A stretch of DNA of 64,000 bases from an uncultured Acidobacteriota bacterium (GTDB lineage: Bacteria > Acidobacteriota > Thermoanaerobaculia > Thermoanaerobaculales > Sulfomarinibacteraceae), in assembly GCA_963844845.1 (NCBI GenBank), contig CAWJPW010000005.1:181661-245660 (forward strand). The letters are read 5' to 3'. The notes beneath the pieces are model-generated. The model had not been told where the DNA came from. It ran no database searches and was given only the letters and a program-made list of their open reading frames with translations. Below are positions 13,765 to 54,348 of the stretch, one piece after another; within the stretch, counting starts at the first letter, position 1; each line of letters begins with the position of its first letter. A program made the translations under genes and the position numbers.

Positions 13765-15471
13765 GTGCCTCCACTGCGAATCACGAGCCCGAGCGCTCCC
13801 GGTGGCTGTGGCCGTGTCTTCGTGACGCTGTTCTTCGGCGTGTTCCTCGCCGCCGGCCTCCTCTTTACAGGGATGCTCGGGCGCGAGGTCCTCGCCACCG
13901 TCGCCACCTGGACGTGGCAGACCGCACCGTGCACCGTGGTCTCCAGCACGGTGACGCAGGACGGCAGCAGCTTCGGCGTCGACATCTCCTATCGCTATCA
14001 ATGGGAGGGCGTCGATCACCTGGGCACCACATTCACGCAGGGCAGCTACTCGACCTCCGACGTGTCCGCAGCCGAACGCGCGGCGGACCGCTACGCCGTG
14101 GGGGCCGAGGCCACCTGCTTCGTCGACCCCGACGACCCCGCACACTCGATGATCCGTCGCCGCTCGCTGTGGTTCGCCTTCACTCTCCTCCTGCCCCTCG
14201 TCTTCGTCGCCGTCGGGGTTGGTGGAATCTGGGGGGTCTGGCGCCGCAAGCCCACGACGCCGGCGGGAGATCTCCAGCCACTGGCGCCGGCAGCCACCCG
14301 CAAGAGTCGGGTCGCTCGTACCGCTCTGCTCGTCCTCTTCGGCCTCTTCGCGCTGGCGGGCGGTGTCGCCACCTACTTCATGCTGATCCGCCCGGCGGTG
14401 CGGGTGTTGGTCGCCCAGGGCTGGGAGGCGACGCCGTGCCGAGTGCTCTCCAGCGAGGTTCGCTCTCACAGGAGCGACGACGGGACGACCTACAGTGTGG
14501 AGATCCTCTACCAGTACGAGCTCCAAGGCCGGAGCTTCCGCGGGAACCGTTACGACTTCCTCGGCGGCTCGTCCGGTGGCTACGAGGGTAAGGCCAGGGT
14601 CGTCGAAGCCCATCCCGTCGGCAGCACAACGGTGTGCTACGTGAATCCTGACGACCCCCACGATACCGTTCTGGAGCGGGGCTTTCGTGCCATCTACCTC
14701 GTCGGGCTCGTTCCGCTGCTGTTCTTCGTGATCGGCGCGGCGGGGTTGACGGCATTGAAGCGCGGACGCTTCTCGGGGCGCACCGCGAAGACCGCTGTAC
14801 CCGGCGCGGGCGCGCCGGCATCTCCCGCTGCAAGCCCACCGTCCGCACCGGGACCGGTGGAGCTGCGCCCGCAGGCATCGCCGCTCGCCAAGCTCGCAGG
14901 CATGACGTTCTTCGCACTTTTCTGGAACGGCATCACCGGCGTCTTCGTGTTCCAGCTCGTGGGGGAGTGGCGCTCAGGGGCTGCCCCGTTGGGAGGAACG
15001 CTCTTCATGGTGCCCTTCGTGCTGATCGGGCTGGCCACCCTGAGCGCCGTCGGCTACTTCTTCCTCGGCCTCTTCAACCCCCGCCCGATCCTGCGTCTGC
15101 CCACCGGCTCACCGGCACTGGGCGACCGCCTCGACGTGGAGTGGGAGCTGCACGGCAGCGTCGAGCGCATCCGCACCTTCCGGATCGCGCTCACGGGCCG
15201 GGAGGAGGCGACCTACCGTCGGGGGACGAACACGCAGACGGACCGCGAGACCTTCGCCGACATCACGGTGTTCGAGAGCAACAGCCCCTGGGAGATGCGC
15301 CGCGGTCAGACCGCGGTGGTGATCCCTTCCGACACGATGCACACATTCACCGCGCCGAACAACAAGGTCGTCTGGGCCATCGCCGTCCACGGCGACATTG
15401 CGCGCTGGCCGGACATCGACGAAGACTTCGCGGTCGACGTGCTGCCCAGACCGCTGGAGCTCGAAACTTGA
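13765..15471 (+). CDS. Polytopic membrane protein with two DUF3592 domains and a C-terminal soluble beta-rich domain
   Basis: Two copies of the pattern TM - W(Q/E)(T/A)xPC(T/R)V(V/L)SS ... Y(R/Q)Y ... CxV(D/N)PDDP - TM. A further TM pair follows, then a roughly 125-aa C-terminal domain. Confidence 0.7.
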   Translation: MPPLRITSPSAPGGCGRVFVTLFFGVFLAAGLLFTGMLGREVLATVATWTWQTAPCTVVSSTVTQDGSSFGVDISYRYQWEGVDHLGTTFTQGSYSTSDVSAAERAADRYAVGAEATCFVDPDDPAHSMIRRRSLWFAFTLLLPLVFVAVGVGGIWGVWRRKPTTPAGDLQPLAPAATRKSRVARTALLVLFGLFALAGGVATYFMLIRPAVRVLVAQGWEATPCRVLSSEVRSHRSDDGTTYSVEILYQYELQGRSFRGNRYDFLGGSSGGYEGKARVVEAHPVGSTTVCYVNPDDPHDTVLERGFRAIYLVGLVPLLFFVIGAAGLTALKRGRFSGRTAKTAVPGAGAPASPAASPPSAPGPVELRPQASPLAKLAGMTFFALFWNGITGVFVFQLVGEWRSGAAPLGGTLFMVPFVLIGLATLSAVGYFFLGLFNPRPILRLPTGSPALGDRLDVEWELHGSVERIRTFRIALTGREEATYRRGTNTQTDRETFADITVFESNSPWEMRRGQTAVVIPSDTMHTFTAPNNKVVWAIAVHGDIARWPDIDEDFAVDVLPRPLELET

Positions 15472-17521: not shown

Positions 17522-18388
17522 TCAGTCGCCACCTGCTCCACTGCCGCCGACGAGGATCTGCAGGCGCTCCCACTCGGCGAGGAACTCGCACAGGTTGGCC
17601 TTCTCCTGTCCCAGTGTGACGAGCAGATCGCGGACCCGCTGCTGCTCCTCAGCGTACTCAGCCGCGGTGAAGTGGCCGGCGAAGTGAGCCACCCTGAGCC
17701 ACACGAGATAGGTGGTGACTGCGTCCAGCTCGTTGTAGTCCACGATACGCTGCAGCTCTCCCGCCAGCCACAGGCCGGCCACCTGGTTGCCGTCGACGTC
17801 CATCTTGCCGGGAATCCCGGACAGGACCGCCAGCTCGTGCAGGGACGGCGTGCCCTTCCCCCAGCCGCCCAGCACGTCCCGCAGGTCGACGTGCGCTTCA
17901 GCGCTGCGCGCGAAGTAGTCGATGCCTTCCCACGGTTTGTCCGGTCGGGAGCAGAAGCCGGCCGCGCGGAGACCGAGGATGACGCCGCGCTGCACGAGGA
18001 TCTTGAGGTCGGACTGACCGGAGTTGAAGCCTACCAACTGCGGTCGATAGCGTCCGACGGCGTCCAGAAAGGTCCCCACCACGCCCACCTCGGTAGCCTG
18101 AGCGTCGTCTGCCGGGTCCCGCGGCAGCGACATGAGGCGCAGGGTGATCTCACCGCCTGGCTCCACACGGCGCTCCACCGCGGCAATGGACACCACCCGG
18201 CACACAACCGTCTTGAGGAACGGTGTGGGATCCTCCTCAGTGGCGCCGCCGGCGAGCCACATGGCGTCCAGCACCTCGGCCGGGTCGGTCACCTCGTCGG
18301 GGACGCCGTAAAGCAGCCGACCTGCCGTCGGGTCGGGAACCCACTCAGCGTCGAAGGCCCACACCCGGTCGGTGACGGTCTTGAACAT
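17522..18388 (-). CDS. Predicted 3'-5' exonuclease related to the PolB exonuclease domain (RNase H-like fold)
   Basis: ATG at 18388 with a GGAGG SD. N-terminal WAFDAEWVPD (Exo I DxE), FNSGQSDLKIL and YNELDAVTTY motifs. Confidence 0.7.
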   Translation of the reverse strand: MFKTVTDRVWAFDAEWVPDPTAGRLLYGVPDEVTDPAEVLDAMWLAGGATEEDPTPFLKTVVCRVVSIAAVERRVEPGGEITLRLMSLPRDPADDAQATEVGVVGTFLDAVGRYRPQLVGFNSGQSDLKILVQRGVILGLRAAGFCSRPDKPWEGIDYFARSAEAHVDLRDVLGGWGKGTPSLHELAVLSGIPGKMDVDGNQVAGLWLAGELQRIVDYNELDAVTTYLVWLRVAHFAGHFTAAEYAEEQQRVRDLLVTLGQEKANLCEFLAEWERLQILVGGSGAGGD

Positions 18389-18504: not shown

Positions 18505-20190
18505 ATGGTCAACGAGCCAACCAAGGTGATCTACTCGATGAGCGGGGTGAGCCGCTTCCACGGTACCCGGCAGGTCCTCAAGGACATCTCGTTGGGGTAC
18601 TTCTACGGAGCCAAGATCGGCGTGATCGGCCTCAATGGCGCCGGCAAGAGCTCGCTGCTCAGGATCATGGCAGGGGTCGACCAGGACTTCCAGGGTGAGG
18701 TCGTATGTGCACCCGGCTACTCGGTGGGCTTCCTGCCGCAGGAGCCGCAGCTGGATCCCGAGGCCAGCGTCCTCGACATCGTCAAGGAGGGTGCGCGCGA
18801 GGCGGTCGACCTCCTCGCCGAGTTCGACACCATCGGCGAGCGCTTCGCCGAGCCCATGAACGACCAGGAAATGAACGCGCTGCTCGAGCGTCAGGGCGAG
18901 GTGCAGGCGCGCATCGACGCGCTCGGCGCGTGGGATCTCGACAGCCGCCTCGAGCTCGCCATGGACGCACTCCGTTGCCCGCCCCCCAAGACCCCGATTC
19001 GCGTGCTGTCGGGGGGTGAGGTGCGGCGGGTGGCGCTGTGCCGCCTGCTTCTGCTGCAACCCGACATCCTCCTCCTCGACGAGCCCACCAACCACCTCGA
19101 TGCCGAGTCGGTGGCCTGGCTGGAGCGCCACCTCAAGGGCTACCAGGGCACCGTCATCGCCGTGACCCACGACCGCTACTTCCTCGATAACGTCGCCGGC
19201 TGGATTCTCGAGCTCGACCGCGGCCACGGCATCCCGTGGAAGGGCAACTACTCGTCCTGGTTGGAGCAGAAGCAGGATCGGTTGCGGCGCGAGCAGAAGG
19301 CCGAGAGCCAGAGGCAGAAGACCCTCGAGCGCGAGCTGGAGTGGGTCCGGATGTCACCCCGTGGCCGGCATGACAAGAGCAAGGCCCGGGTCAAGAGCTA
19401 CCAGGCTCTACTCGCCCAGGAGAGCGACCGTCTCGCCCGCGAGCTGGAGATCTACATCCCGCCCGGCCCCCGTCTCGGCGACGTAGTCATCGAGGCGCAG
19501 GGGGTACGCAAGGCGTTCGGCGACCGCCTCCTGGTGGACGACATGACCTTCACCATTCCACCGGGTGCCGTGGTGGGCGTGGTTGGGCCCAACGGCGCCG
19601 GCAAGACGACGCTGTTCCAGATGATCACCGGGCAGGAGACGCCCGACGCCGGCCTTCTCCGGCTCGGCGACACGGTGGAGCTTGCCTACGTGGACCAGAG
19701 CCGAAGCACCCTCGACCCTGACCGCACGGTCTGGGAGGTCATCTCCGAGGGCAGTGAGTCGGTTCGCCTGGGCCGTGCCGAGGTGAGCTCGCGCGCCTAC
19801 GTAGGCCGCTTCAACTTCTCGGGCGCCGACCAGCAGAAGCGCGTGGCCGATCTCTCGGGCGGCGAGCGCAACCGCGTTCATCTCGCCCGGATGCTCAAGC
19901 AGGGCGCCAACGTGCTTCTTCTCGACGAGCCCACCAACGACCTCGACGTGAACACCCTGCGCGCCCTCGAGGAGGCGATCCTCGCCTTCGCCGGCAGCGT
20001 GGTGGTCATCAGCCACGACCGCTGGTTCCTCGACCGCGTGGCCACCCACGTCCTCGCCTTCGAGGGCGACAGCCGTGTGCTTTTCTTCGATGGCATGTAC
20101 TCGGAGTACGAGGCCGATCGCAGGGCGCGCCTGGGCGCCGCCGCGGAGAGGCCGCACCGTATCACCTACCGTTCCCTGACCCGGACCTGA
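18505..20190 (+). CDS. ettA: Energy-dependent translational throttle protein EttA (ABC-F ATPase)
   Basis: Two ABC cassettes (GLNGAGKSS, LSGGEVRR, LLLDEPTNHLD; GPNGAGKTT, LSGGERNR, LLLDEPTNDLD), 561 aa, with an EttA-like N-terminus. Confidence 0.92.
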   Translation: MVNEPTKVIYSMSGVSRFHGTRQVLKDISLGYFYGAKIGVIGLNGAGKSSLLRIMAGVDQDFQGEVVCAPGYSVGFLPQEPQLDPEASVLDIVKEGAREAVDLLAEFDTIGERFAEPMNDQEMNALLERQGEVQARIDALGAWDLDSRLELAMDALRCPPPKTPIRVLSGGEVRRVALCRLLLLQPDILLLDEPTNHLDAESVAWLERHLKGYQGTVIAVTHDRYFLDNVAGWILELDRGHGIPWKGNYSSWLEQKQDRLRREQKAESQRQKTLERELEWVRMSPRGRHDKSKARVKSYQALLAQESDRLARELEIYIPPGPRLGDVVIEAQGVRKAFGDRLLVDDMTFTIPPGAVVGVVGPNGAGKTTLFQMITGQETPDAGLLRLGDTVELAYVDQSRSTLDPDRTVWEVISEGSESVRLGRAEVSSRAYVGRFNFSGADQQKRVADLSGGERNRVHLARMLKQGANVLLLDEPTNDLDVNTLRALEEAILAFAGSVVVISHDRWFLDRVATHVLAFEGDSRVLFFDGMYSEYEADRRARLGAAAERPHRITYRSLTRT

Positions 20191-20239
20191 CCGGTCCGTG
20201 CCACGACACACCGCGGTGTGGACCGCGGGGAGGTATGAC

Positions 20240-20698
20240 ATGCGCCACCTGACAACGTCCGTGATCGTCGTCCTCGTCGTCGCCACAGCGCTCGCCGGCG
20301 GGCGCTCGGCGGGCGCCCAGACCACTACGCCTGCCGCGACCACCCCCACCGCGACCGCCCAACGGGAAACGCCTCACGAGATACCCGGCCAGTGGCTCCG
20401 TGACGTCCAGAAGCGGCGTGACGAGATCGCCACGCGCCACGAGGCCATGATGGTCCGTCTCGACGCGCTCTCCAAGACGATGAACCAGGCCACCGGGCAG
20501 GCCAAGATCGACGCCATGGCCGCCCTCCTCAACGAGCTCGTGGCACAGCAGAAAGCGACGCTTGAGAAAGCCGGGGCGCAGACCACGGGCCGCTTCGAGC
20601 CGGCGCGCCGGCGGCGGGTGCCGCCGGGCGCCCGCAACCGAGTCGCGCCAGCCTCGCAACCGACGCCGCCTCCGGACGGCAAGAACCCAACTCCTTGA
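20240..20698 (+). CDS. Secreted alpha-helical hypothetical protein
   Basis: ATG at 20240. Signal peptide MRHLTTSVIVVLVVATALAGGRSAGA, followed by helical sequence and a Pro/Arg-rich tail. Confidence 0.5.
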   Translation: MRHLTTSVIVVLVVATALAGGRSAGAQTTTPAATTPTATAQRETPHEIPGQWLRDVQKRRDEIATRHEAMMVRLDALSKTMNQATGQAKIDAMAALLNELVAQQKATLEKAGAQTTGRFEPARRRRVPPGARNRVAPASQPTPPPDGKNPTP

Positions 20699-20747
20699 GC
20701 CGTAAAGGCACAGCGATCGCAATGGCTGGCGTCACAGGGAGGATCCC

Positions 20748-21245
20748 GTGCTCGAGCTGCTGAGGATCTCTTCGCTTCCCAACCTCCACCCGGCGGTGGT
20801 CCACTTCCCACTCGCCCTGGCGCCGGCCGCCTTCCTCTTCGACCTGATCGCCATCGCCGTGAGGCGCCGGCTCTGGCTCGATCGCACCGGAACCGCGTTG
20901 TGGGTGATGGCCGGGCTCGGGGCGCTGGCCGCCTACCTGGCCGGGCTCAACGCCGAGGATCACGTCGCCGGCAGTCTCGCGCCCCGTGCCGAGGCGGTGA
21001 TGTACGACCATCGTGACTGGGCCCTGCGAGCACTCATCATCATGGGTGCGGCGGTGTTCCTCCGCCTCCTCGTGGCCTGGCGGGAGCGCGGACGCGGCCA
21101 CGTCGCCGTCACGCCCCTCCGCGCCGTTGCACTGCTGGCCGGCGCCCTCACCCTGGTGCTGCTCGTGGTCACAGCCGACCACGGCGGCAGTCTCGTGTAC
21201 CACTGGGGCGCAGCGGTGACCCCGGTCTCCACGAGTGGTGGTTGA
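20748..21245 (+). CDS. DUF2231-like integral membrane protein
   Basis: GTG at 20748 with a GGGAGG SD. NLHPAVVHFPLAL motif, four TM spans, and DHGGSLVYHWG near the C-terminus. Confidence 0.65.
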   Translation: MLELLRISSLPNLHPAVVHFPLALAPAAFLFDLIAIAVRRRLWLDRTGTALWVMAGLGALAAYLAGLNAEDHVAGSLAPRAEAVMYDHRDWALRALIIMGAAVFLRLLVAWRERGRGHVAVTPLRAVALLAGALTLVLLVVTADHGGSLVYHWGAAVTPVSTSGG

Positions 21246-21488
21246 GTGGTTGGCCGAGAGCGGCCGGCACCACGCTGCACAGAACCGGCACGTGGAAACT
21301 AACCCTAGCTCAGACCTCAGGTTGCGCCAACGGGAGCGTTCGGCTAGCCTGAACTGTGGGCCCCCGGTCGCGGAGGCCCCGAATTGGGGGGGAGATGAAG
21401 CGCATCGACGGCGGCCGCCGGTTGTGCCGGTCGCGCACGGCCCCGACGAGCCGTGAGCCCTTTGTCCAGCCTCGTGGGTCGGGCTGCG

Positions 21489-22622
21489 ATGAGTGACCCG
21501 CGGCGCCACGCCGGCCTCCGACAGCTGGTGGAGCGTACCTGGGAGCGCAATCTTCTCTTCTCCGTGCTCGTCGAGCTTACCTATCGCTGTAACCTCGACT
21601 GCTTCTTCTGCTACAACGACGTCGGCCTCGGCGGTACCCCCCTCACCACCGACCAGTGGCTCGCCTTCTTCCGCGACCTCGCCGCGATGCAGGTCCTCAA
21701 CCTCACCCTGAGCGGCGGCGAACCTCTCGCCCATCCCGAGTTCTTCCGCCTCGGCAGCACCGCCCGTGACCTGGGCTTCGCCGTGCGTATCAAGACCAAC
21801 GGGCACGCGATCACCCGGTCCGTGGCGCGCCGCCTCAAGGACGAGGTCGACCCGTTCAACCTCGACGTCAGCCTCCACGGCGCCAGCGCCGCCACCCACG
21901 ACCGCCAGACTCGCGTACCCGGCAGCTTCACCCGGCTCCTGGCCAACCTCCAGATCATGCGCGCCGAAGGCCTGCGCGTACGCGCCAACTGCACGCTGAC
22001 GCGCTGGAACGAGGATGAGCTGGAGGCGCTCTTCGCCCTCGCCGACCGGCTCGGCCTCACCCTCACGGTGTCCCCCCAGGTTTCGCCCCGCGACGACGGC
22101 GACCGCGCGCCGCTGGGGATTGCACCATCGCCGGCGGGCATAGCGACGCTGTACCGCCTGCTGGCGGAGCAACGTCGTGTCCGGGTCGCCGACGAGGATC
22201 CCGCCCCGCAGGCGGCGTGCAGCGGCGAGCACCTGCCGTCCCTCACCACCAAGAACTGCGGCGCGGGCTCCGGCGGCGTGGCCGTGGATCCCATGGGCAA
22301 CGTGCTTCCCTGCGTGCAGTGGCGTCGGCCGGTGGGGAACCTACACGAACGCTCCATCAAGGAGATCTGGGCCGACTCGCCGCGCCTCGCTGAGGTCCGC
22401 GGGGTGACGGCCGCTGCGCGGGAGCACCGCGACCGCCTGGCAGCTGCACGCAGCCAGCCCACCCTGTTCTGCCCTGCTCTGGCCGAGACGCTCACCGGAC
22501 ATCCCCTCGGCGTCTACCCCGAGGTCGCACCTGAAGCGGGAGGTCGGTTCCCGGCAAGCGACGGCTCGGTTCTCCCGATGCTACCCGACCACGCCTCAAT
22601 ACCGTTCCTGCCCGAAGTGTGA
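21489..22622 (+). CDS. Radical SAM enzyme with truncated SPASM/twitch-like C-terminal domain (putative peptide maturase)
   Basis: CNLDCFFC (CxxxCxxC) cluster motif and a SGGEPL SAM-binding motif. The C-terminal NCGAGSGGVAVDPMGNVLPC ... FCP provides only 3 auxiliary Cys. The start is either ATG 21489 or GTG 21453. Confidence 0.8.
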   Translation: MSDPRRHAGLRQLVERTWERNLLFSVLVELTYRCNLDCFFCYNDVGLGGTPLTTDQWLAFFRDLAAMQVLNLTLSGGEPLAHPEFFRLGSTARDLGFAVRIKTNGHAITRSVARRLKDEVDPFNLDVSLHGASAATHDRQTRVPGSFTRLLANLQIMRAEGLRVRANCTLTRWNEDELEALFALADRLGLTLTVSPQVSPRDDGDRAPLGIAPSPAGIATLYRLLAEQRRVRVADEDPAPQAACSGEHLPSLTTKNCGAGSGGVAVDPMGNVLPCVQWRRPVGNLHERSIKEIWADSPRLAEVRGVTAAAREHRDRLAAARSQPTLFCPALAETLTGHPLGVYPEVAPEAGGRFPASDGSVLPMLPDHASIPFLPEV

Positions 22623-22810
22623 CTGAAGAGGACATGAGAGCCGCACTCGACGCCTCGTCGTCCGCTCCGCCGCGACGAGAGAGGCGGCCCTGGACGGCCC
22701 CTCGCATCGTCTCGCGGCAGCCGCTCGAAGCCATCGCCGCGGCGTGCACCCCCTCCACCGAAGGCGGGTCCGGCAAAGCCGACCCCACCCGTGGCACGCC
22801 CGGCTTCTGA
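22619..22810 (+). CDS. Candidate RiPP precursor peptide (63 aa; 58 aa if it starts at ATG 22634)
   Basis: The GTG overlaps the radical-SAM stop (GTGA). GC3 is about 85%. The leader-like PWTAPRIV fits the (Y/W)xxPx(L/I) RRE-binding pattern. The Gly/Ser/Thr/Pro-rich C-terminal part has a single Cys (AAACTPSTEGGSGKADPTRGTPGF). Confidence 0.4.
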   Translation: MTEEDMRAALDASSSAPPRRERRPWTAPRIVSRQPLEAIAAACTPSTEGGSGKADPTRGTPGF

Positions 22811-22812
22811 CG

Positions 22813-23100
22813 CTACGCCTCGGCAGCCGGCACGATGAGGCCGGCAGCCACGGCATCTTCAATGAATCCCTCGAGGTCGGTACGCAGCCGGGCGACGGGC
22901 GCCTCGAACTCCTCCACAAGCCGCGACGCGATCGCGCCGAAGCTCTCGCCATCGTCCACGAGACACAGCACCCGCGCCGCAACCTCGTTGAGGATCAACA
23001 CCTCGCCCGGCCCCTGTCGCAGCACCACGGCCTCATCCTCGACAACCCGATAACGCACGTCACGACAGAGCTCGAACCGGCAGTTGTCGTCCATCCTCAC
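22813..23100 (-). CDS. PqqD-family protein (RiPP recognition element / peptide chaperone)
   Basis: About 93 aa. RYRVVEDEAVVLRQGPGEVLILNEVAARVLCLVDDGESFGAIASRLVEEFE matches the PqqD winged-helix pattern. The start is GTG 23100 or ATG 23094. Confidence 0.75.
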   Translation of the reverse strand: MRMDDNCRFELCRDVRYRVVEDEAVVLRQGPGEVLILNEVAARVLCLVDDGESFGAIASRLVEEFEAPVARLRTDLEGFIEDAVAAGLIVPAAEA

Positions 23101-23324
23101 ACCTGCCCCCCGGCGATCTCGCTCATGATCCGTATCACTCCCGACTGCCGCCCGAACGTGAGCACACCGGTGCCCACCGTCACGGTGGAGCCATCGCGAA
23201 CCGCCGGCGCCGTGTAGCTGCCGCAGACCGTCACCGCCACCGGGCCAGAGGCCGCCAGTCCCGCCGACGCCTGGGCCCGTCGCCTCCTCCTCTCAGCCAT
23301 CGAGCAGTGGTCGCCGTCCCCCAC
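23097..23324 (-). CDS. Small ORF translationally coupled to the PqqD gene (75 aa from GTG 23324, or 67 aa from ATG 23300)
   Basis: Its stop overlaps the PqqD start (GTGA). GC3 is about 86%. A TACTAT box lies 7 nt upstream of GTG 23324. No family recognised. Confidence 0.35.
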   Translation of the reverse strand: MGDGDHCSMAERRRRRAQASAGLAASGPVAVTVCGSYTAPAVRDGSTVTVGTGVLTFGRQSGVIRIMSEIAGGQV

Positions 23325-23331
23325 GCCGTCG

Positions 23332-23337
23332 ATAGTA
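23332..23337 (-). promoter_or_regulatory. -10-like TACTAT box 7 nt before GTG 23324 (leaderless-type geometry)
   Basis: The plus strand reads ATAGTA at 23332-23337. The geometry matches the other leaderless candidates. Confidence 0.3.
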
Positions 23338-23443
23338 GCAGGCGGTCGCCTCCCGGGCGCGGCTGACCACGGCGACCGTCGTGGCGATGACAACAGGGAT
23401 GTGTCGCCGACCAGCGCGAGCGGAACGCCCTTCTCGCAGAGGT

Positions 23444-24517
23444 CTACTCTCCACTCGGAGGCGGCCGCACCACCGACGCCTCGTCGACCAGCCGTGGTGA
23501 GGTGTCGAGCATGACCGCGACCCAGCGGAGGTCCTCGGTGTTCTCCAGCAGGATCTTCACCACCATGGTGAGAGGGACCGAGAGCAGCATCCCTAAAGGC
23601 CCCCACACCCAGCCCCAGAACACGAGAGAGAGAAAGACGACCAACGGTGAGAGACCCAGCCGGCGGCCCATGAGCTGCGGCTCGACGACATTCCCCAACA
23701 CCATGTTCACCGCGATGAAGCCGGCGGCCGCAAGCAGGGCTCTCCCCGGGCCGAGCTGGAGCAGGGCGAGGAGTACCGGCGGCACGGCGGCGATGATGGA
23801 GCCGAGGTTGGGGATGTAGTTGAGGAGAAAGGCGAGCAGGCCCCAGAGGAGTGCGAAGTCCACGCCGAGGATGGCGAGCCAGCCCCCCAGGACGATCCCG
23901 GTGACCACGCTCACCGCGGTCTTGATCCCCAGGTAGTGCTGAACCTCCACCATGACCTTGGTGAAGCGTCCCAGGTCGGCGCCCGGCCGTCCCAGCGCCG
24001 CCCGGACCTTGCTCGGCAGACCGGCCGCTTCGAGCAGGATGAAGACGAGGATGAGAAACACCATGACCACGTTGGAGACGGCGGCGGCGAGGGTCTTGAG
24101 CGTTCCCGCCATCATCCCCATCACCGAGCCGACGCTCACGATCGATGAGAGGCGGTCCCCGGGGAGATCCACTCGGTGCATCCGCAGCCAGGTCGCGGCG
24201 GAGCGGAGCAGCGCCGTGAGCCGGGCCTGGTACTCCGGGAGAGCTGCGGTGAACTCGTTCACCGAGCCCCCGATCATCGCCCCCACCCCGACCAGCACGC
24301 CCATCACCGCCACGACCACCAACAGCACTGCCAACACTGTCGGTAGCCGCCGTTGCAACCAACGCACCGCGGGTACGCAGAGGATGGCGAGGAACGCGGC
24401 GATGAGTAGCGGGATGAGGAGAGTCTGAGCGGCCCGCAGCCCAGCCACGACGACCACCACGGCCGCTGCGGTCAGGAGCATCCCTGGACCGCCTGCACGC
24501 ACCTCCGACGAACTCAT
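23444..24517 (-). CDS. AI-2E family transporter (PerM/YhhT-like permease)
   Basis: Eight or so TM spans. LLNYIPNLGSII and NVVEPQLMGRRLGLSPLVVFLSL motifs. An alternative upstream start at 24640 would add an acidic 41-aa extension. Confidence 0.8.
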   Translation of the reverse strand: MSSSEVRAGGPGMLLTAAAVVVVVAGLRAAQTLLIPLLIAAFLAILCVPAVRWLQRRLPTVLAVLLVVVAVMGVLVGVGAMIGGSVNEFTAALPEYQARLTALLRSAATWLRMHRVDLPGDRLSSIVSVGSVMGMMAGTLKTLAAAVSNVVMVFLILVFILLEAAGLPSKVRAALGRPGADLGRFTKVMVEVQHYLGIKTAVSVVTGIVLGGWLAILGVDFALLWGLLAFLLNYIPNLGSIIAAVPPVLLALLQLGPGRALLAAAGFIAVNMVLGNVVEPQLMGRRLGLSPLVVFLSLVFWGWVWGPLGMLLSVPLTMVVKILLENTEDLRWVAVMLDTSPRLVDEASVVRPPPSGE

Positions 24518-24796
24518 GGGAGAAGGATAGCGGAGGGACCCCCGACCCGCCACCCCGGGGGACTCAGGCTCAGAGGTGCTCTCTTCCTCCCCAGCCTCTA
24601 GGGCGACGACGAGATTGGTGCGGGGCCCCATCCTCTCCAACGAGTTCCGCTCGACACGACTGACCCCAGGGCCACAGGCGGTTGGTCATTGCGATCTCGT
24701 GACCGCGACCGGAAGGATCGTCGGCGACACCGAGCCCTGGGAAACGGCCTCAGCTGGGGGTGGGGTCGGTCCTCTCTACCTCGGGACTCGGCGCGG

Positions 24797-26152
24797 CTAT
24801 TTCTCCGGCTCTCCGAGGTAACCCAGCAGCAACGCCTTCTTCTCGTTCATCAGCTCGACGGTCCGCGCCTCCAGCACCAGACGCAGGAGCGGCTCGGTGT
24901 TCGACGGCCGCACGTTGAACCACCAGTCTCGGTACTGCACAGTGATGCCGTCGAGGTGATCCACCTCGCCGTCGCCGAAGACGTCGCCAAGGCGGCGGAT
25001 CATGCCGTCCTTGTCGTCCACGTGAAAGTTGATCTCACCGGTGGCGTGATAGCGGTGGAGCGGAGCCACGAGCTCCGACAAAGGCAGACCGGTCTCACGC
25101 AGATGGTTGAGTAGCTCCACCACGGTGAGCAGCGAGGAGTCGGCGGTGTAGTTGCTGCGGTAGTAGAAATGCCCGGCCAGCTCGCCGCCGAAGGGCGAGC
25201 CCAGCTCGCGCATGGTGGCCTTCATGAAGGAGTGCCCGACCCTCTCGCGCACCGGTCGGCCACCGGCCTCTGCGATCGCCTCCTTGGTGGCCCAGGACGA
25301 GCGCAGGTCGTAGACGATGGCAGCGCCCGGCTCCTCTCTCAGGAATCGCGGCGCCAAAAGCCCGGTGATCATGTCGGCCGAAATGGCGCGGCCCCGCTCG
25401 TCGATGAACATGGCCCGGTCGGCGTCACCGTCGAACGCAACACCCAGGTCGCAACTCTGCTCGCGCACCAGCCGCTCCACGTCGACGAGGTTCTCGGCCT
25501 TGAGCGGATTGGCTTCGTGGTTCGGGAAGCTCCCGTCGAGCTCGAAGTAGAGGGGGAGGACCTCCACGCCGAGTTGCTCGAGGACGGGAAGGTAGAGAGT
25601 CGCCATGCCGTTGGCGGCGTCGGCGGCGACGCGTAGGCGTGGCTCGCGGGCGACGAGATGCGACAGCACGTGCTCGGTGTACGCGGAAAACACCTCCCGC
25701 CGCTCCTCGCCGGCGAGGGGCTCGAGGTCCATGGCGACGCTGCTGCCTTCGACCAGCTTCTCCAGGCGTGCGATTCCCGTGTCCCACGAAACCGGGATCG
25801 CGTCCCGGCGGGACATCTTGAAGCCGTTGTACACGGCAGGGTTGTGGCTGGCCGTGACCTGGATCCCGCCGGACGCTCTGAAGTAACCGGTGGCGAAGTA
25901 GTTCTGGGGCGTGTCGGCGAGACCGATGTCGATCACCGCCAATCCCCGGGCCCGCAGGCCGCGCTTCAAAGCCGCTGCCAACGGCTCCGAGTGGGAGCGC
26001 ATGTCGCGGGACACCACCACCACCGGCCCCCGGGCGACGTCAGCCTCGTCCAAGAGATCCTGGTAGTGGTAGCCGACCCTGAACGCCGTCCTCTCGTCGA
26101 GCTGCTCCGGGTAGGTTCCACGGATGTCGTACGCTTTGAAGATGCCTGCCAT
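24797..26152 (-). CDS. Phosphomannomutase/phosphoglucomutase (alpha-D-phosphohexomutase)
   Basis: ATG at 26152 with a GGAGGA SD. Active-site TASHNP, metal-binding FDGDADR, and N-terminal FKAYDIRG. Confidence 0.9.
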   Translation of the reverse strand: MAGIFKAYDIRGTYPEQLDERTAFRVGYHYQDLLDEADVARGPVVVVSRDMRSHSEPLAAALKRGLRARGLAVIDIGLADTPQNYFATGYFRASGGIQVTASHNPAVYNGFKMSRRDAIPVSWDTGIARLEKLVEGSSVAMDLEPLAGEERREVFSAYTEHVLSHLVAREPRLRVAADAANGMATLYLPVLEQLGVEVLPLYFELDGSFPNHEANPLKAENLVDVERLVREQSCDLGVAFDGDADRAMFIDERGRAISADMITGLLAPRFLREEPGAAIVYDLRSSWATKEAIAEAGGRPVRERVGHSFMKATMRELGSPFGGELAGHFYYRSNYTADSSLLTVVELLNHLRETGLPLSELVAPLHRYHATGEINFHVDDKDGMIRRLGDVFGDGEVDHLDGITVQYRDWWFNVRPSNTEPLLRLVLEARTVELMNEKKALLLGYLGEPEK

Positions 26153-26172
26153 TCGTCCTCCGGAGCGCGGTC

Positions 26173-28308
26173 CTACTTGCTGTCGTCCGCATTTTTGAAC
26201 ACCTGGTTCCGGGCGAACTGCTCCACGTTCCAGGGCGGAGCCCCTCCCCCGAGCCACTGATGGAACCAGTCGAGGTGCTCAAGATAGTAGAAACACATCT
26301 CGTACCAGCTGGGCCAGTGCCCGGACCCGGGGTAGACGACCAGCCGCGAGGGCACCTTCATCTTCTGCAGATCGGTGAAGAACATCAGGCTCTGGGTGTA
26401 GGGCACTCTGAAGTCCTGCTCGCCGGTGATCACCATGGTGGGCATCTTGAAGTTCAGCACGTAGGACGAAGGTGAGGAGCTCTGATAGAGCTCCGCCTGC
26501 TCCCAGGGCGTACCGCACAGGTCGTGCTCGGGAAACCAGAGCTCTTCCGTTGCCGAGTACATGGCGCGGAGGTCGTACACCCCCATCATCGAGGCGATGG
26601 CTTTGAAGCGATCGGTGTGTCCCTCGAACCACATCATCATGTACCCGCCGTAGGACCACCCCATGGCTCCCATGCGCTGGGAGTCCACGTAGGGCAGGGC
26701 GGCCACGGCGTCGGTGACCTTCATGAGGTCCCCGTAGACTCTGCCGCCCCAATCGCAGCTGATGGCGTCGATGAAGTCCTGACCGAAGCCATTCGACCCG
26801 GTCGGGTTGGCGAATGCCACGACGTAACCCTTGCCGGGGTAGACCTGCCAGTCGCCGCGGTAGGCGTCCGTCCACGCCTGCTGCGGCCCGCCATGGACGT
26901 TGAGGATCAGCGGGTAACGCTTCGCCGGGTCGAAGTCGTGCGGTTTGACGATGAAGACCTGAACCTTGTACTCCCCGGCCCCCTGCACCCAGAGCTGCTC
27001 GGCGGGACGGACGTCCACCTGATCCAGGAGGTCGGCGTTGAACGAGGTCAGTGCCCGGCGGCCGGAGCCGTCCAGAGTGCCGCGGATGATCTCCGGCGGC
27101 GCACCGACCCTGCGGGTGGAGTAGACGAACGCTCGCCCGTCGGGAGCCAGCTCCCAGCCGCCGATGGTGCCGTCGGCGAGGACCTGGAGGATGGTCTTGC
27201 CCTCGAGGTCGGTGCGGAACAGCGGCGTGCGGCCGCGGACGTCTGCCGCGAAGTAGAGGGTTCTGCTGTCGGGGCTCCAGCGAATCGACTCGGTCCAGTC
27301 GTCGAAGCCGTCGCGACCCGTGAGGTAGCGGACTGTCCCGTCCTCACGGCCGTAGAGCGCCAGGCGGAAGAGGTCGGACTCATAGCCGGGAGTGGCCTGG
27401 CTGCGAAATGCTATGAAGCGCCCGTCCGGCGAGTACACGGGACTGCCGTCCCAGCCGTGATTTGCTGCGGTGAGGTTGTGAGGGGCCGTCGCGGCCGCGT
27501 CGCCACCCACGGCCACCGTCCAGAGGTCCGAGTTTGTCGAGCTCGCCGGATCCGCATCGTGATTGGAGACGTAGCACAGCTCGCCGCCGTCAGGGGAGAA
27601 GGCATAGCCAACTTCGCCGCCCAGCGAGAAGGTCGGGCTGTCCCAGCGGCCGGGCGTGAGGTCCCGTGTCACCTCGCCGGAGTCGGCGGCCACAAGGAGA
27701 ACATGGCTGTACGTCCCGTCCCGCCACTGGGTCCAGTGCCGGTAGAGCAGCCCGTCCGCGGTGTGCACGTGAAGAGGCCCGGCGTCCCTGGACTCGAGAA
27801 GAGTCCGATTGCATTCGGCGTCGGCGCCGCACTCCGGGTAGACCTTGGATGACACGGCAATGACGCTGCCGTCGGGCGACCACACAGGGTCACTCGCTCC
27901 CATAGGGAAGTCGCTGAGCTGGCGCGCCTCGCCGCCGTCCACCGCCATCACGTACAGCTGAGTCGTGTCCCCGCCGCGGTCCGAGACGAAGACGAGCTTG
28001 GTTCCATCCGGAGAGAAGGCGGGCGCGCCGTCGTGATGACGGCCGAAGGTCAGCTGACGCAGCCCGCTCCCGTCTGCGGCCATCATCCAGATCTCCGACC
28101 AGCTCTCGCCCTTCTCCAACTCGTAGCGCCTGACGGTGAACGCCACCTTTCCCGTGGCTGGGGCGACAACCGGAGCGCCGACGAATGCGGTCCGGTAGTA
28201 GTCGCTGATCTCGAAGGCCCGCTTCGGAGCGGTGGTCTGATCGGTCGCGGCTGAGGCGCCCGCTGCCACCAGCAGGGCCAGACCGAAGGTCGCGATTCGC
28301 GCGTGCAT
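26173..28308 (-). CDS. S9-family serine peptidase with N-terminal beta-propeller (acylaminoacyl/dipeptidyl peptidase-like), secreted
   Basis: ATG at 28308 with an AAGGAGGA SD. Signal peptide present. TolB-like repeats (PAFSPDG, PVWSPDG, AFSPDG, PVYSPDG, IRWSPDS). Nucleophile elbow GWSYGG. Confidence 0.88.
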   Translation of the reverse strand: MHARIATFGLALLVAAGASAATDQTTAPKRAFEISDYYRTAFVGAPVVAPATGKVAFTVRRYELEKGESWSEIWMMAADGSGLRQLTFGRHHDGAPAFSPDGTKLVFVSDRGGDTTQLYVMAVDGGEARQLSDFPMGASDPVWSPDGSVIAVSSKVYPECGADAECNRTLLESRDAGPLHVHTADGLLYRHWTQWRDGTYSHVLLVAADSGEVTRDLTPGRWDSPTFSLGGEVGYAFSPDGGELCYVSNHDADPASSTNSDLWTVAVGGDAAATAPHNLTAANHGWDGSPVYSPDGRFIAFRSQATPGYESDLFRLALYGREDGTVRYLTGRDGFDDWTESIRWSPDSRTLYFAADVRGRTPLFRTDLEGKTILQVLADGTIGGWELAPDGRAFVYSTRRVGAPPEIIRGTLDGSGRRALTSFNADLLDQVDVRPAEQLWVQGAGEYKVQVFIVKPHDFDPAKRYPLILNVHGGPQQAWTDAYRGDWQVYPGKGYVVAFANPTGSNGFGQDFIDAISCDWGGRVYGDLMKVTDAVAALPYVDSQRMGAMGWSYGGYMMMWFEGHTDRFKAIASMMGVYDLRAMYSATEELWFPEHDLCGTPWEQAELYQSSSPSSYVLNFKMPTMVITGEQDFRVPYTQSLMFFTDLQKMKVPSRLVVYPGSGHWPSWYEMCFYYLEHLDWFHQWLGGGAPPWNVEQFARNQVFKNADDSK

Positions 28309-29492: not shown

Positions 29493-30161
29493 ATGTGCGG
29501 CCGTTACACCCTGACGCTCAGCGGCCAGGCGCTCGCCGAGGCCTTCGAGCTCGATGACGTGCCCGCGGCGACGCCTCGCTACAACGTCGCACCCACCCAG
29601 AGCATGCCGGTCATCCGGGGCGGGGAAGCGGGCCGCCGCACGTGTGCGCTGCACCGTTGGGGACTGGTGCCCTTCTGGGCCGACGACCCCGCGATCGGAA
29701 ACCGGCTCATCAACGCGCGCTCGGAGAGCGTCGCCGGCAAGCCGGCATTCCGCGCTGCGTTCCGGCATCGCCGCTGCCTGGTGCCGGCAGACGGCTTCTA
29801 CGAGTGGCGCAGGGAAGGCGGCGGCAAACAGCCGTACCTGATCCGCTTCGGCGACGGCAGGCTGTTCGCGTTCGCCGGGCTCTGGGAGCACTGGTCGCCC
29901 TCGGACGGCCAAGTGCTGGATAGCTTCACGATCCTCACGACGTCGCCTAACGATGTGGTGAGGCCCGTACACGACCGCATGCCAGTGATTCTCCCGCCCC
30001 AGCACTACGACCGCTGGCTCGGCTTCACCGAGGCCAGCGCAAGCGAGCTTCAGGCCCTCCTCTGCCCGCACCCGTCCGAGGGCATGGAGCTCCATCCGGT
30101 AAGCAGGCGGGTGAACTCGCCAGCCAACGATGATCCGCAGGTCGTCGAGCCTTCCCCGTAG
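29493..30161 (+). CDS. SOS response-associated peptidase (SRAP/YedK/HMCES family, abasic-site sensor)
   Basis: N-terminal MCGRY with catalytic Cys2. Also RYNVAPTQ, INARSE, DGFYEW and MPVIL motifs. Confidence 0.9.
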   Translation: MCGRYTLTLSGQALAEAFELDDVPAATPRYNVAPTQSMPVIRGGEAGRRTCALHRWGLVPFWADDPAIGNRLINARSESVAGKPAFRAAFRHRRCLVPADGFYEWRREGGGKQPYLIRFGDGRLFAFAGLWEHWSPSDGQVLDSFTILTTSPNDVVRPVHDRMPVILPPQHYDRWLGFTEASASELQALLCPHPSEGMELHPVSRRVNSPANDDPQVVEPSP

Positions 30162-30460: not shown

Positions 30461-31489
30461 ATGACTGACGCAAAGATGTGGTACGTGGCCGTGGGCGGAG
30501 AGAGCATCGGGCCCATGGGCAAGGAGGACCTTCTCCAGCAGCTGAAGGCGGGCCGTTACAATGCCCAGACGCTGGTCTTCACCCAGGGAATGTCGGGTTG
30601 GACGCCGGCCGGGCAGGTCGCCGAGCTGCAGGGAGGCGCCGTCGAGGCGCAGGTGCCGCCGGCGCCGATGTCGGCGGGTGCGGCTCGCCGCGCGCACGAG
30701 GTCGACTTCGAGGTCTTCGGTGAGGAGATGCAGTTCGTCGAGGTGGAGCTGGATCCCGGCGAGACCGCGGTGGCCGAGGCCGGGGCCATGATGTACATGT
30801 CCCAGGGTATCGAGATGCAGACGATCTTCGGCGACGGGAGCGGGCAGGGCGGAGGCGGCATCATGGGCGCGCTTATGTCCGCCGGAAAGCGTGTCCTGAC
30901 CGGTGAGAGCCTTTTCATGACCGCGTTCACCAACAACGGCCAGGGCAAGCAGCACGTGGCCTTCGCCGCCCCCTACCCGGGCAAGATCATCCCCATGGAC
31001 CTGCAAACTATGGGCGGCCGCCTCGTGTGCCAGAAGGACGCCCTGCTGTGCGCCGCCAAGGGCGTCGCCATCGGCATCGCCTTCCAGAAGCGCATCGGTG
31101 TGGGCCTGTTCGGCGGCGAGGGATTCATCATGCAGAAGCTCGAGGGCGACGGCATGGCCTTCGTCCACGCCGGCGGCACCATCGTGTCGCGTCAGCTCCA
31201 GCCGGGCCAGTCTCTGAAGGTCGACACTGGCTGCATCGTCGCGCTGGAAGCCACCGTCGACTACGACATCCAGTTCGTGGGCGGCGTCAAGTCGGCGATC
31301 TTCGGCGGCGAGGGCTTCTTCTTCGCCCAACTCACCGGACCCGGCAGGGTGTGGCTGCAGTCACTCCCCTTCAGCCGGCTTGCCGGCCGGATCTGGCAGT
31401 CGGCGCCCCAGGCCGGCGGCAAGGACCGTGGCGAAGGTTCCATCCTCGGCAAGATGGGGGGCATCGGCGGCTTTTTCGACGGCGACTAG
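30461..31489 (+). CDS. GYF_2 (DUF4339) domain fused to an AIM24/TIGR00266-family protein
   Basis: [26 protein letters not shown]...[11 protein letters not shown] forms the GYF_2 part. The AIM24-like body follows ([56 protein letters not shown]). Confidence 0.8.
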
Positions 31490-53148: not shown

Positions 53149-54348
53149 TCAGCTCCCCTCGACGACCCAGACGCCATCGCTCGGCACCAGCGCCACGTCG
53201 TCGATCATCACCCGGCGCCCACAGCCGCCAGGCCGGAAGTCGGCAACGATGTCGACGTGCTGCGCGGAGCGGTTGAGCACGCCACGCTCCTCCAGCCGGC
53301 GCAGACGCTCCCGTCCCTCCGCGCCGCCCGGGTCGTCCACGAAGCAGTCCTCGTAGCTGGCGCCGATCGCAATATGCAGCGTTCCGCCGACCTTCTCCAC
53401 CAGCAACGGGTGCTTCAACGCGCGCTCCAGCCCGGGGTTCATGCCCAGCGCCACCTCGCCCAGCCGGTGCGAGCCTTCGTCCGTCTCGACGATGGCCGCG
53501 AGCTGGTCGCCCCCCTCCGCTGCCCTGTAGCTCACGATCCGTCCGCCGCTGAAGGCCAGCTCGATGCCCCGCATGTCGCGGCCGCCGTAGTTCACCGGAA
53601 GGTCCAGATAGATCTCGCCCTCCACGCTGCCGGCGTCGGGGCTGGTGAAGATCTCTCCGTCCGGGAAGTTACGCAGACCGTACGAGAGGCGAGGCAGGCC
53701 CTCGTTCAAGGCCATCGTGAGCACCAGCTCACGACCGTCGTCCGGGTGCTCGGTCACCACCGTCATGGTTCGGCCGTTTTGGAACAACGGCGCGAGCCGC
53801 TCCTCCGCCGCCCGCAGCGGGCGCGGATCGGTGGTTGATGCCTTGACCAGGAAGCGCGTGTACTCCGCCAGATCCATACCCTCCATCGCGGCAAATGCCG
53901 GCGTCGGGTAGAGCGTCAGCACCCACGGCTTGCTCAAGCGGATATCGGCAAAGGCACGATCGGCGGCGGCGAGCCCGCGCACCTGCTCCGGCGTGAGACC
54001 CGTATACCTCGCGGGGTCCTCTGCGCCGAGCACCTCCACGTACTTGGTCATGCTTTCGTAGCGCCCCCGGTGCCACGCCGGTACGCGCTCGAGCTGCTGA
54101 GGACCTGCGTGCCTCGCCACGGTGGCCGACCACACGCGTCCCCGCTCGTTGTCAGGCGGCACGAGGTAGACATCGGGGACCGCCCCGGCGTTCGCCACGC
54201 GACGCTGGAGCGCCTCGAGGAGCGGCCAGCAGATCCGCTCGCCTTTGAGCATCACCCGGTCGTCGGGAGAGATCCCTCCGAGGGAGTGGTCGAGCAGCAA
54301 TGCGGCCCAGACCTCGAGATCGTCAGCAGCGATGTAGGCTTCCTGCAC
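53149..54348 (-). CDS. M29-family aminopeptidase (AmpS/PepS-like)
   Basis: GTG at 54348 with a GAGGGGG SD. NFPDGEIFTSP, GEVALG and GGTLHIAIG motifs are typical of thermophilic metalloprotease M29. Confidence 0.8.
   Translation of the reverse strand: MQEAYIAADDLEVWAALLLDHSLGGISPDDRVMLKGERICWPLLEALQRRVANAGAVPDVYLVPPDNERGRVWSATVARHAGPQQLERVPAWHRGRYESMTKYVEVLGAEDPARYTGLTPEQVRGLAAADRAFADIRLSKPWVLTLYPTPAFAAMEGMDLAEYTRFLVKASTTDPRPLRAAEERLAPLFQNGRTMTVVTEHPDDGRELVLTMALNEGLPRLSYGLRNFPDGEIFTSPDAGSVEGEIYLDLPVNYGGRDMRGIELAFSGGRIVSYRAAEGGDQLAAIVETDEGSHRLGEVALGMNPGLERALKHPLLVEKVGGTLHIAIGASYEDCFVDDPGGAEGRERLRRLEERGVLNRSAQHVDIVADFRPGGCGRRVMIDDVALVPSDGVWVVEGS

Follow-up and report, generated by a model that had tools for sequence, protein, structure and literature searches.

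What would be made by a locus in which a radical S-adenosylmethionine (SAM) gene, a PqqD-family gene and two small open reading frames (ORFs) overlap or nearly abut one another? Such a locus is found in an uncultured Acidobacteriota bacterium (Thermoanaerobaculia, Sulfomarinibacteraceae; assembly GCA_963844845.1) on contig CAWJPW010000005.1, of which we analyzed a stretch of 64,000 nucleotides (positions 181,661 to 245,660), in the following referred to as the window. An earlier note had described it as a locus for a ribosomally made and post-translationally modified peptide (RiPP), with a maturase of the twitch radical-SAM type, a discrete PqqD-type RiPP recognition element (RRE) and a translationally coupled precursor. 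Our analysis supports this description, and the sequence features it named, i.e. the radical-SAM gene, a 63-aa ORF, the PqqD gene and a 67-aa ORF, are all present. We consider it likely that they constitute a degenerate member of a RiPP-type cassette that is conserved in Acidobacteriota, namely in Thermoanaerobaculia and Holophagales. Judging from its sequence, the locus is partly decayed and its peptide aberrant; this copy is probably defective and most likely no longer makes the mature product of the family, yielding at most a partly modified, uncleaved peptide.

This reading rests largely on the 67-aa ORF, which overlaps the GTG of the PqqD gene as GTGA and had been taken for a possible second precursor of 67-75 aa. 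Its first part matches positions 28-75 of a hidden Markov model (HMM) built from 66 members of a signal peptidase I-like (SpI-like) family, with E = 2.5e-6 compared to 0.1 for the next best of 1132 window ORFs. Its last 24 residues, VGTGVLTFGRQSGVIRIMSEIAGG, can be aligned over their full length to residues 284-307 of a 307-aa ScmC-like protein encoded in L004, the closest relative of the locus, with a score of 53 versus 24.2 ± 3.8 for shuffled sequences, a value reached by none of 2000 shuffles. In L004, the peptidase and kinase genes sit exactly at the position of this ORF, where the window has 377 bp and L004 has 1440 bp (ScmC-like and SpI-like genes). Together, the profile match and the tail alignment identify the 67-aa ORF as a scar, left when a single in-frame deletion of ~1.1 kb removed, by these alignments, the larger part of the peptidase gene and almost the entire kinase gene. 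The SpI-like relic comprises ~50 residues; its nucleophile is gone (G-d-C-M-a-P has become G-S-Y-T-A-P), as are the His and Asp boxes. The ORF is therefore not a second precursor, but an SpI-like N-terminus fused to a ScmC-like C-terminus, and we rejected it as a candidate: it has no homolog in the peptide family described below and carries neither a [YW]xxP leader nor the core scaffold.

The lost genes were not found again within the 64 kb, which are part of a contig of ~255 kb. A ScmC-family profile gave nothing significant (best E = 0.11, an unrelated ORF), tblastn with ScmC-like, SpI-like, NTP_transf_5, Wzy_C, TPR and C25 queries detected nothing but the scar, and HMM searches for ScmC-like, SpI-like, peptide and PqqD sequences returned no further copies beyond the locus and the scar.

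The second line of evidence comes from the 63-aa ORF, whose GTG overlaps the stop of the radical-SAM gene as GTGA. An HMM of the peptide family, from which the window sequence was excluded, recognizes it (Table 1), the next best of the 1132 six-frame window ORFs reaching only E = 0.04. This match and its conservation beside the enzyme in relatives confirm its proposed role as a translationally coupled precursor. The leader W-T-A-P-R-I fits the family motif [Y/W]xxPx[ILV], and the LEAIAAAC anchor is present. The core, CTPSTEGGSGKADPTRGTPGF, by contrast, lacks the second Cys and the C-terminal Ser of the family. The nearest relatives, P0242 (…GKADPTCGTPGS) and P0241 (…GKDGPSCQTPGS), belong to the same sub-lineage and keep both residues, which represents the ancestral state. 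At the very end of the core, P0242 (from L086) reads …ACTPATEGGTGKADPTCGTPGS, P0241 (from L004) …ACTPISEGGTGKDGPSCQTPGS and the window peptide …ACTPSTEGGSGKADPTRGTPGF. In sum, the window peptide has acquired Arg in place of Cys2, Phe in place of the terminal Ser and Gln in place of a Glu in the RE-x-LE motif of the leader, while the leader motif, Cys1 and Lys are retained. A loss of both Cys2 and the terminal Ser is otherwise confined to a few family members with completely divergent C-termini, which arose perhaps through frameshifts. A weak tblastn peptide match at 53301-53441 (E = 2e-4) was not reproduced by the family HMM and was dismissed as compositional noise; with this HMM, no second peptide gene was found in the 64 kb.

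The earlier statement that this is not a precursor of the pyrroloquinoline quinone (PQQ), mycofactocin or Cys-rich sacti- or ranthipeptide type holds as well, as all NCBIfam scores remain far below their cut-offs. The window peptide ends in …TPGF and its relatives in …GPISS, distinct from the GVY ending of MftA; likewise, the E-x3-Y motif of PqqA is absent and the core contains no Tyr.

Table 1. Features of the locus, followed by selected flanking genes (positions in the window).
Feature	Position	Strand	Basis
Radical-SAM ORF	21489..22622, alternative GTG start 21453	+	CNLDCFFC; Pfam Radical_SAM and partial SPASM
Precursor peptide ORF, 63 aa	22619..22810	+	peptide-family HMM, E = 1.9e-14
PqqD-family RRE	22813..23100	-	PF05402
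67-aa ORF (deletion scar)	23097..23300	-	SpI-like start and ScmC-like end
SpI-like gene relic, N-terminal third	23172..23321	-	SpI-like family HMM
HprK-like (ScmC-type) kinase gene relic, last 24 codons	23106..23177	-	alignment to L004 ScmC-like protein
Double DUF3592 protein	13765-15471	+	
PolB-like 3'-5' exonuclease	17522-18388	-	
SRAP	29493-30161	+	
GYF_2 and AIM24 protein	30461-31489	+	

The locus itself is not an assembly artefact, given that a second, independent assembly (Logan ERR11523667) is 100% identical across 20008-26656. With ~69% G+C, the window readily gives rise to small ORFs by chance; the G+C content at third codon positions (GC3) is coding-like in all four ORFs of the locus (0.81 in the peptide frame). 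A 157-aa ORF at 22744-23217 (+), antisense to the PqqD gene and the scar, also has a GC3 of 0.81 and is most likely no gene, but a consequence of the high G+C content. The leaderless-type promoter proposed upstream of the 67-aa ORF could not be confirmed: there is no sigma-70-like site within 21000-23700, in a scan that is uninformative for non-canonical promoters. Riboswitches or other RNAs are not indicated either, with no Rfam match in 20000-25000 at E ≤ 0.1.

The state from which the window copy appears to have decayed can be seen in its relatives. We mapped the cassette with a handful of tblastn queries onto 80 genome loci and four metagenome loci; divergent copies may escape such searches, and the following presence counts are therefore lower bounds. 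Nearly all relatives are metagenome-assembled genomes (MAGs), almost all of them from Thermoanaerobaculia and Holophagales, and the cassette occurs in at least 160 species-level genomes. Its recurrent order is NTP_transf_5 (~3.5 kb upstream of the radical-SAM gene), Wzy_C (-2.1 kb), TPR (-1.65 kb), the SpI-like gene (-1.25 kb), a ScmC-type HprK-like gene (-0.3 kb), an abutting PqqD gene and the radical-SAM gene, which is followed on the opposite strand by the peptide gene (at a downstream distance of 10-60 bp in 58 loci), with a PorU-like C25 gene upstream of the latter and often a Bac_transf gene further on. Among assessable loci, PqqD was detected in 78/81, the ScmC-like gene in 72/75, the SpI-like gene in 60/72, the peptide in 69/74, TPR in 49/71, Wzy_C in 48/68, NTP_transf_5 in 37/51 and C25 in 39/68. 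The lack of a protease, which had been noted for the window, is consequently no property of the system, as an SpI-like peptidase and an HprK-like kinase are found in the relatives, usually accompanied by an NTP transferase and by C25. Literature searches, with subscription-only papers outside their coverage, yielded no description of this acidobacterial cassette.

Of the two proteins that the window has lost, the SpI-like protein (113-150 aa; e.g. L002:4341-4787 (+), L004:3651-3992 (-) and 64 further loci) matches TIGR02228, the archaeal/SipW-type signal peptidase I, with E = 9e-12, and also Peptidase_S24, both below the respective cut-off. In its motif G-x-[C/S]-M-x-P, the nucleophile column holds Cys in 57 sequences, Ser in six and Arg in one, while the His and two Asp are invariant in 66/66; the alternation of Cys and Ser argues that this residue is catalytic. 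The protein looks like a Cys-His-Asp variant of the signal peptidases of the endoplasmic reticulum and archaea, and possibly acts as a cytoplasmic leader peptidase. The ScmC-like protein has a conserved P-loop (GxSGAGKxT) and LSDD motif, and gives weak matches to Hpr_kinase_C, ScmC (27.8 bits versus a cut-off of 125) and HprK_rel_A/B. No curated family matches the peptide or the SpI-like protein above its cut-off. Lasso-peptide B2 or C genes are not annotated in three main-type cassettes that we inspected, though this was no systematic search across all loci. In L003 (1113-4273), a second set of genes stands beside the cassette, consisting of PqqD, Transglut_core3 (lasso B2-like), another ScmC/HprK-like gene and NTP_transf_5; it echoes the reported co-localization of linear polyphosphorylated peptide (LPP) RiPP clusters and paeninodin-like lasso clusters in Bacillota.

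The peptide family is large and has gone unannotated. A profile search returned 464 matches, every one of them labeled hypothetical, and a search of 1.84 billion representatives gave at least 518 clusters at 50% identity (E ≤ 1e-3). The family shares the scaffold [KR]x[YW]xxPx[ILV]xxRExLExxAxxC1 – x3-12 – [GA]K – x3-9 – C2 – x3-6 – Ser (C-terminus), in which, among 262 members, [YW]xxP is kept by 256, Lys by 261, Cys2 by 259 (99%) and the terminal Ser by 256 (98%). The co-conservation of a small ORF beside the radical-SAM gene, which the earlier note had suggested as a check, is borne out in 69/74 assessable loci. In the 62 main-type loci, the mean identity is 76% for the peptide module and 70% for the enzyme; the peptide is thus about as conserved as the enzyme, which points to a constrained cellular role and not to an arms-race antibiotic. 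A 4-nt overlap between the peptide gene and its upstream neighbor occurs in four sub-lineage loci; this neighbor is C25 in L087 and the radical-SAM gene in the other three (the window, L004 and L086). Usually, the peptide gene lies directly downstream of the PorU-like C25 gene on the same strand (L001:7107-11957 (-), L087:1-602), and two database proteins, P0262 (714 aa) and P0362 (1426 aa), carry the peptide module as an in-frame fusion to the C25 C-terminus. In P0362, the module follows a hydrophobic stretch and RGRRKRK, resembling a membrane anchor with a subsequent cytoplasmic tail. Among the 80 genome loci, L081 (JAPUDV010000089.1) alone is labeled outside Acidobacteriota (as Candidatus Competibacteraceae); it has a divergent core (…AAACADFGKADGTGNCATNPNS), a PqqD or ScmC-like gene was not detected nearby, and it may reflect horizontal transfer or mis-binning.

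The radical-SAM protein, 377 aa long when counted from the ATG at 21489, belongs to its superfamily by a PF04055 (Radical_SAM) score of 70.2 bits, compared to a cut-off of 29.5, and by the CNLDCFFC motif (CX3CX2C), which is invariant in 120/120 homologs. Pfam SPASM matches with 35 bits, over model positions 1-53 of 67. In the same 120 homologs, the invariant Cys residues are exclusively C34, C38, C41, C257, C275 and C328; no other Cys column reaches 30%, and the full seven-Cys SPASM motif (CX9-15GX4C…CX2CX5CX3C…C), to which two auxiliary clusters bind, is not formed. The Pfam coverage and the Cys conservation confirm the twitch or partial SPASM domain that had been assigned to the protein; the C-terminal pattern given with it requires correction only in its spacing, as the sequence reads C-x12-G-x4-C, which is C-x17-C and not C-x18-C, with one further Cys. 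The enzyme has more than 1800 database relatives, most with ~55-62% identity and nearly all from Thermoanaerobaculia, Holophagales or other Acidobacteriota MAGs.

An AlphaFold model of the protein (pLDDT 84.7) finds its best sequence and fold matches in PqqE, SkfB (root-mean-square deviation 3.7 Å), SuiB, CteB, MoaA, BlsE and anSME, and the nearest folds among these, PqqE (6c8v), SkfB (6efn), SuiB (5v1t) and CteB (5wgg), are peptide maturases. In NCBIfam, every model scores far below its cut-off: MftC (TIGR03962) reaches 120.4 bits of 265, PqqE (TIGR02109) 100.8 of 381 and ScmE 98.5 of 400, placing the enzyme outside the mycofactocin and PQQ families. The window protein retains 126 of the 136 columns that are ≥95% conserved; most of its deviations are common to L004, which leaves essentially one window-specific change at highly conserved columns. 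We considered whether it is a pseudogene and rejected this, as neither relative rates nor conserved-column counts indicate acceleration and all six Cys are kept.

The PqqD protein comprises 95 aa from its GTG, or 93 aa from the ATG at 23094. Its gene is convergent to the peptide gene, and its stop lies on the opposite strand, 2 nt past the end of the 63-aa ORF. PF05402 matches with 48.2 bits (gathering cut-off 23.4, E = 1.3e-12) and a profile of the cassette PqqD proteins with 119 bits (E = 1.7e-35). With the gene adjoining the radical-SAM gene in 78/81 loci, and with a maturase and a leader-motif peptide nearby, the protein is, by its sequence, a predicted discrete RRE. Sequence searches of the PDB with the PqqD and SpI-like proteins gave weak matches only.

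A comparison with L004 also delimits the cassette in the window. L004, whose radical-SAM protein is 68% identical, is laid out as [C25][radical-SAM][peptide] → ← [PqqD][ScmC-like][SpI-like][AI-2E][PGM][S9] and, on the right-hand side, shares synteny with the window. Nucleotide identity is 71% for the radical-SAM/peptide/PqqD block (window 21524-23103), compared to 82% for AI-2E and 84% for the PGM and S9 peptidase genes in the flank (23480-26908). The ratios of nonsynonymous to synonymous substitution rates (dN/dS) are 0.34 for the radical-SAM gene, 0.33 for PqqD and 0.46 for the peptide, and 0.09-0.13 for the flanking genes. The AI-2E family transporter, formerly considered the one gene possibly attached to the locus, adjoins it in the window and L004, but in none of the other 82 loci; it is therefore a syntenic neighbor and not a component, and we rejected it as the exporter of the system. 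On the left-hand side, the C25 gene of L004 (L004:1-1146) overlaps the radical-SAM start, whereas the window has a gene for a DUF2231 membrane protein (20748-21245) as the upstream neighbor and then a gap of 243 bp (21246-21488), in which no C25 remnant is detectable. Rearrangement has thus also affected the left border of the cassette. Further flanking genes are unrelated housekeeping or miscellaneous genes (Table 1); a scan of ten flanking ORFs found neither polysaccharide nor RiPP genes.

How much function is left in the window copy is a separate question, and several observations weigh against the decay of a RiPP-type system. The radical-SAM enzyme appears intact by its sequence and is, in a relative-rate comparison, no further from outgroups than that of L004. 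The dN/dS values of the radical-SAM gene, PqqD and the peptide are all below 1, though above those of the flanking genes. Copies of the kinase and the peptidase may exist elsewhere in the genome, given that the searches covered 64 of ~255 kb. For the cassette in general, no ABC exporter (an ORF with Walker A and LSGGQ) was found within ±8 kb in any of 56 loci, and it is by analogy that we infer which reaction the radical-SAM enzyme catalyzes, where the peptide is phosphorylated and where it is cleaved. The deletion may be recent; otherwise, enzyme and RRE are still in some use. The latter would be the case in a reduced but working system, in which radical-SAM and PqqD modify a one-Cys peptide or a partner encoded elsewhere, with kinase and peptidase provided in trans or not needed. 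The unaccelerated enzyme with its 126/136 conserved columns, the dN/dS values, the retained leader motif, Cys1 and Lys, and the coverage of only a quarter of the contig speak for this possibility. On the other hand, the 64 kb hold no second peptide and no ScmC-like or SpI-like gene, and the double loss of Cys2 and the terminal Ser is otherwise seen only in the few members with fully divergent C-termini. We therefore regard a reduced but working system as unlikely.

Still less probable is an intact, minimal and novel RiPP system, in which radical-SAM and PqqD act on the 63-aa and/or the 67-aa ORF as precursors without any further enzymes. All four ORFs are open, translationally coupled and coding-like in GC3, and both proteins are well conserved, which speaks for this explanation. 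Yet the 67-aa ORF combines fragments of two enzyme genes and has neither leader nor core scaffold, L004 has full-length genes at its position, and the 63-aa peptide lacks two residues that are kept by 98-99% of its family, making such a system very unlikely. Lastly, the radical-SAM protein might not modify peptides at all, but be a heme or cofactor enzyme of the AhbD/NirJ type or of the MoaA type, beside incidental small ORFs. The NCBIfam models of AhbD and NirJ indeed score similarly to those of MftC and PqqE, all of them far below their cut-offs. However, the tight linkage of the enzyme to a PqqD RRE (78/81) and a conserved peptide (69/74), the 4-nt peptide-gene overlaps in the four sub-lineage loci and the RiPP maturases among its fold neighbors render this highly improbable. 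A degenerate copy of the conserved cassette accordingly remains our preferred reading.

For the intact cassette, these parts suggest the following pathway. The discrete PqqD-type RRE would bind the [Y/W]xxPx[ILV] leader of the ~55-60-aa peptide and present it to the twitch radical-SAM enzyme, in which a SAM cluster is predicted to be joined by an auxiliary cluster held by three Cys only. The enzyme would most likely install a Cys-dependent cross-link, e.g. a thioether, in the C1…(G/A)K…C2 core. Open-iron-site auxiliary clusters bind the substrate Cys in CteB and the substrate in MoaA. The three-Cys cluster is compatible with such an open site, which makes a thioether or a related Cys-centered reaction our first guess. 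The two conserved Cys of the peptide and this cluster likewise appear compatible with Cys-to-carbon thioethers of the sacti- and ranthipeptide type. Oxidation of Cys to formylglycine, epimerization or a Lys cross-link are possible alternatives that would fit the conserved Lys and the C-x-P context. The RRE may also present the peptide to the HprK-like P-loop kinase for the phosphorylation of a Ser, the best candidate being the C-terminal one, and the NTP_transf_5 enzyme may decorate the phosphate. Finally, the SpI-like protease (Cys/Ser-His-Asp) would cut off the leader, with the A-x-A-A stretch of small residues that precedes Cys1 as the probable site.

The cassette sits among genes for the envelope and polysaccharides (Wzy_C, TPR, Bac_transf and PorU-like C25), and the fusion of the peptide module to the C25 C-terminus in two database proteins would functionally tie its product to C25 and envelope polysaccharide assembly. 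Tentatively, and with more doubt than confidence, we propose that the intact cassette represents a new RiPP class, in which an open-site twitch enzyme cross-links Cys…Lys…Cys, a kinase and an NTP transferase of the LPP/paeninodin type phosphorylate and possibly glycosylate the C-terminal Ser, a signal peptidase I with a Cys nucleophile removes the leader, and the product is linked to PorU-like C25 and envelope polysaccharide assembly. If this is true, LPP-type chemistry extends beyond Bacillota, and RiPP machinery is tied to envelope biogenesis in Acidobacteriota. Soils are rich in these bacteria, their cultivation is difficult and, to our knowledge, their peptide chemistry is almost unexplored. 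An intact relative would offer a tractable test case for a three-Cys twitch enzyme acting on a two-Cys core, a Cys-His-Asp leader peptidase and a link to the capsule or envelope. The window copy is chiefly useful as a natural knock-out that reveals which parts were lost together.

How does this cassette relate to known systems? With PqqE, SkfB, SuiB and CteB, the cassette enzyme has in common a radical-SAM core with a C-terminal auxiliary-cluster domain and, by prediction, peptide substrates bound via a leader. It differs by its low identity (15-23%), its three auxiliary Cys without the CX2CX5CX3C block, and an RRE that is discrete and not fused. The SynChlorMet cassette (ScmC, ScmD, ScmE and ScmF; NCBIfam TIGR04249-04251) resembles it in combining radical-SAM/SPASM enzymes, a PqqD homolog and the HprK-related ScmC, and precomputed Pfam annotation places the kinase-like protein of the relatives in PF27840 (ScmC). 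SynChlorMet, however, has two full SPASM enzymes instead of one twitch enzyme, and the ScmE and ScmC scores of the cassette lie far below their cut-offs. The window, in which a profile search of the 64 kb found no ScmC-like gene, does not belong to SynChlorMet. We know of no precursor assigned to SynChlorMet, whereas a conserved one is identified here; literature searches, from whose coverage subscription-only papers were excluded, found no mention of the SynChlorMet cassette.

The tailoring of the lasso peptides paeninodin and pseudomycoidin involves an HprK-like kinase that phosphorylates the C-terminal Ser and, in pseudomycoidin, the NTP transferase PsmN, which then puts one or more hexoses on the phosphate (PMC6993621). 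The combination of an HprK-like kinase, NTP_transf_5 and a PqqD-type RRE is shared with the cassette, and the Ser modified in these lasso peptides is the C-terminal one, the residue in which 98% of the cassette peptides end; the phosphorylation site in the cassette is one that we infer. The C cyclase and B2 protease of lasso systems are not annotated in the three main-type cassettes inspected; a radical-SAM enzyme and an SpI-like peptidase are present instead.

The closest parallel are the LPP RiPPs of Bacillota, described in May 2026 (Popov et al., 2026, Nat Commun, PMC13381572). There, the RRE LppB presents the leader to an SpI-like peptidase, LppS (Ser29/His68/Asp93), and the kinase LppK polyphosphorylates a Ser of the core; according to the authors, the class is restricted to Bacillota, and radical SAM is not mentioned (PMC13381572). 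The cassette shares its toolkit of LppS, LppB, LppK and LppN, i.e. a putative leader peptidase that is SpI-like and of the archaeal/SipW type, a discrete RRE of the PqqD type, an HprK-like kinase and a transferase of the NTP_transf_5 type, as well as the leader motif [Y/W]xxPx[LVI] and the setting in polysaccharide loci. To this set, the acidobacterial cassette adds the twitch radical-SAM enzyme and often PorU-like C25, Wzy_C and TPR. The peptidase nucleophile is Ser in LPP but mostly Cys in the cassette (57 Cys, six Ser), and an MsbA-like exporter belongs to LPP but has no counterpart near the cassette (0/56 loci). Of the LPP leader consensus YxxPxVLxHQxIxFETxxS, the cassette peptides match the [Y/W]xxPx[ILV] part only, the rest reading …RE.LE..A..C, and while LPP C-termini are highly variable, the scaffold C…K…C…S is fixed in the cassette core. 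The window copy differs further by having no kinase, peptidase or transferase. By this comparison, the cassette lies outside LPP as defined, yet clearly draws on the same parts. The product class, which had been suggested to be possibly new, is not wholly so, as the toolkit corresponds to that of the LPP RiPPs plus a radical-SAM enzyme. What the cassette unites are two toolkits that have been studied separately, leader-guided cross-linking by radical-SAM enzymes and the LPP pathway of SpI peptidase, HprK kinase and NTP transferase.

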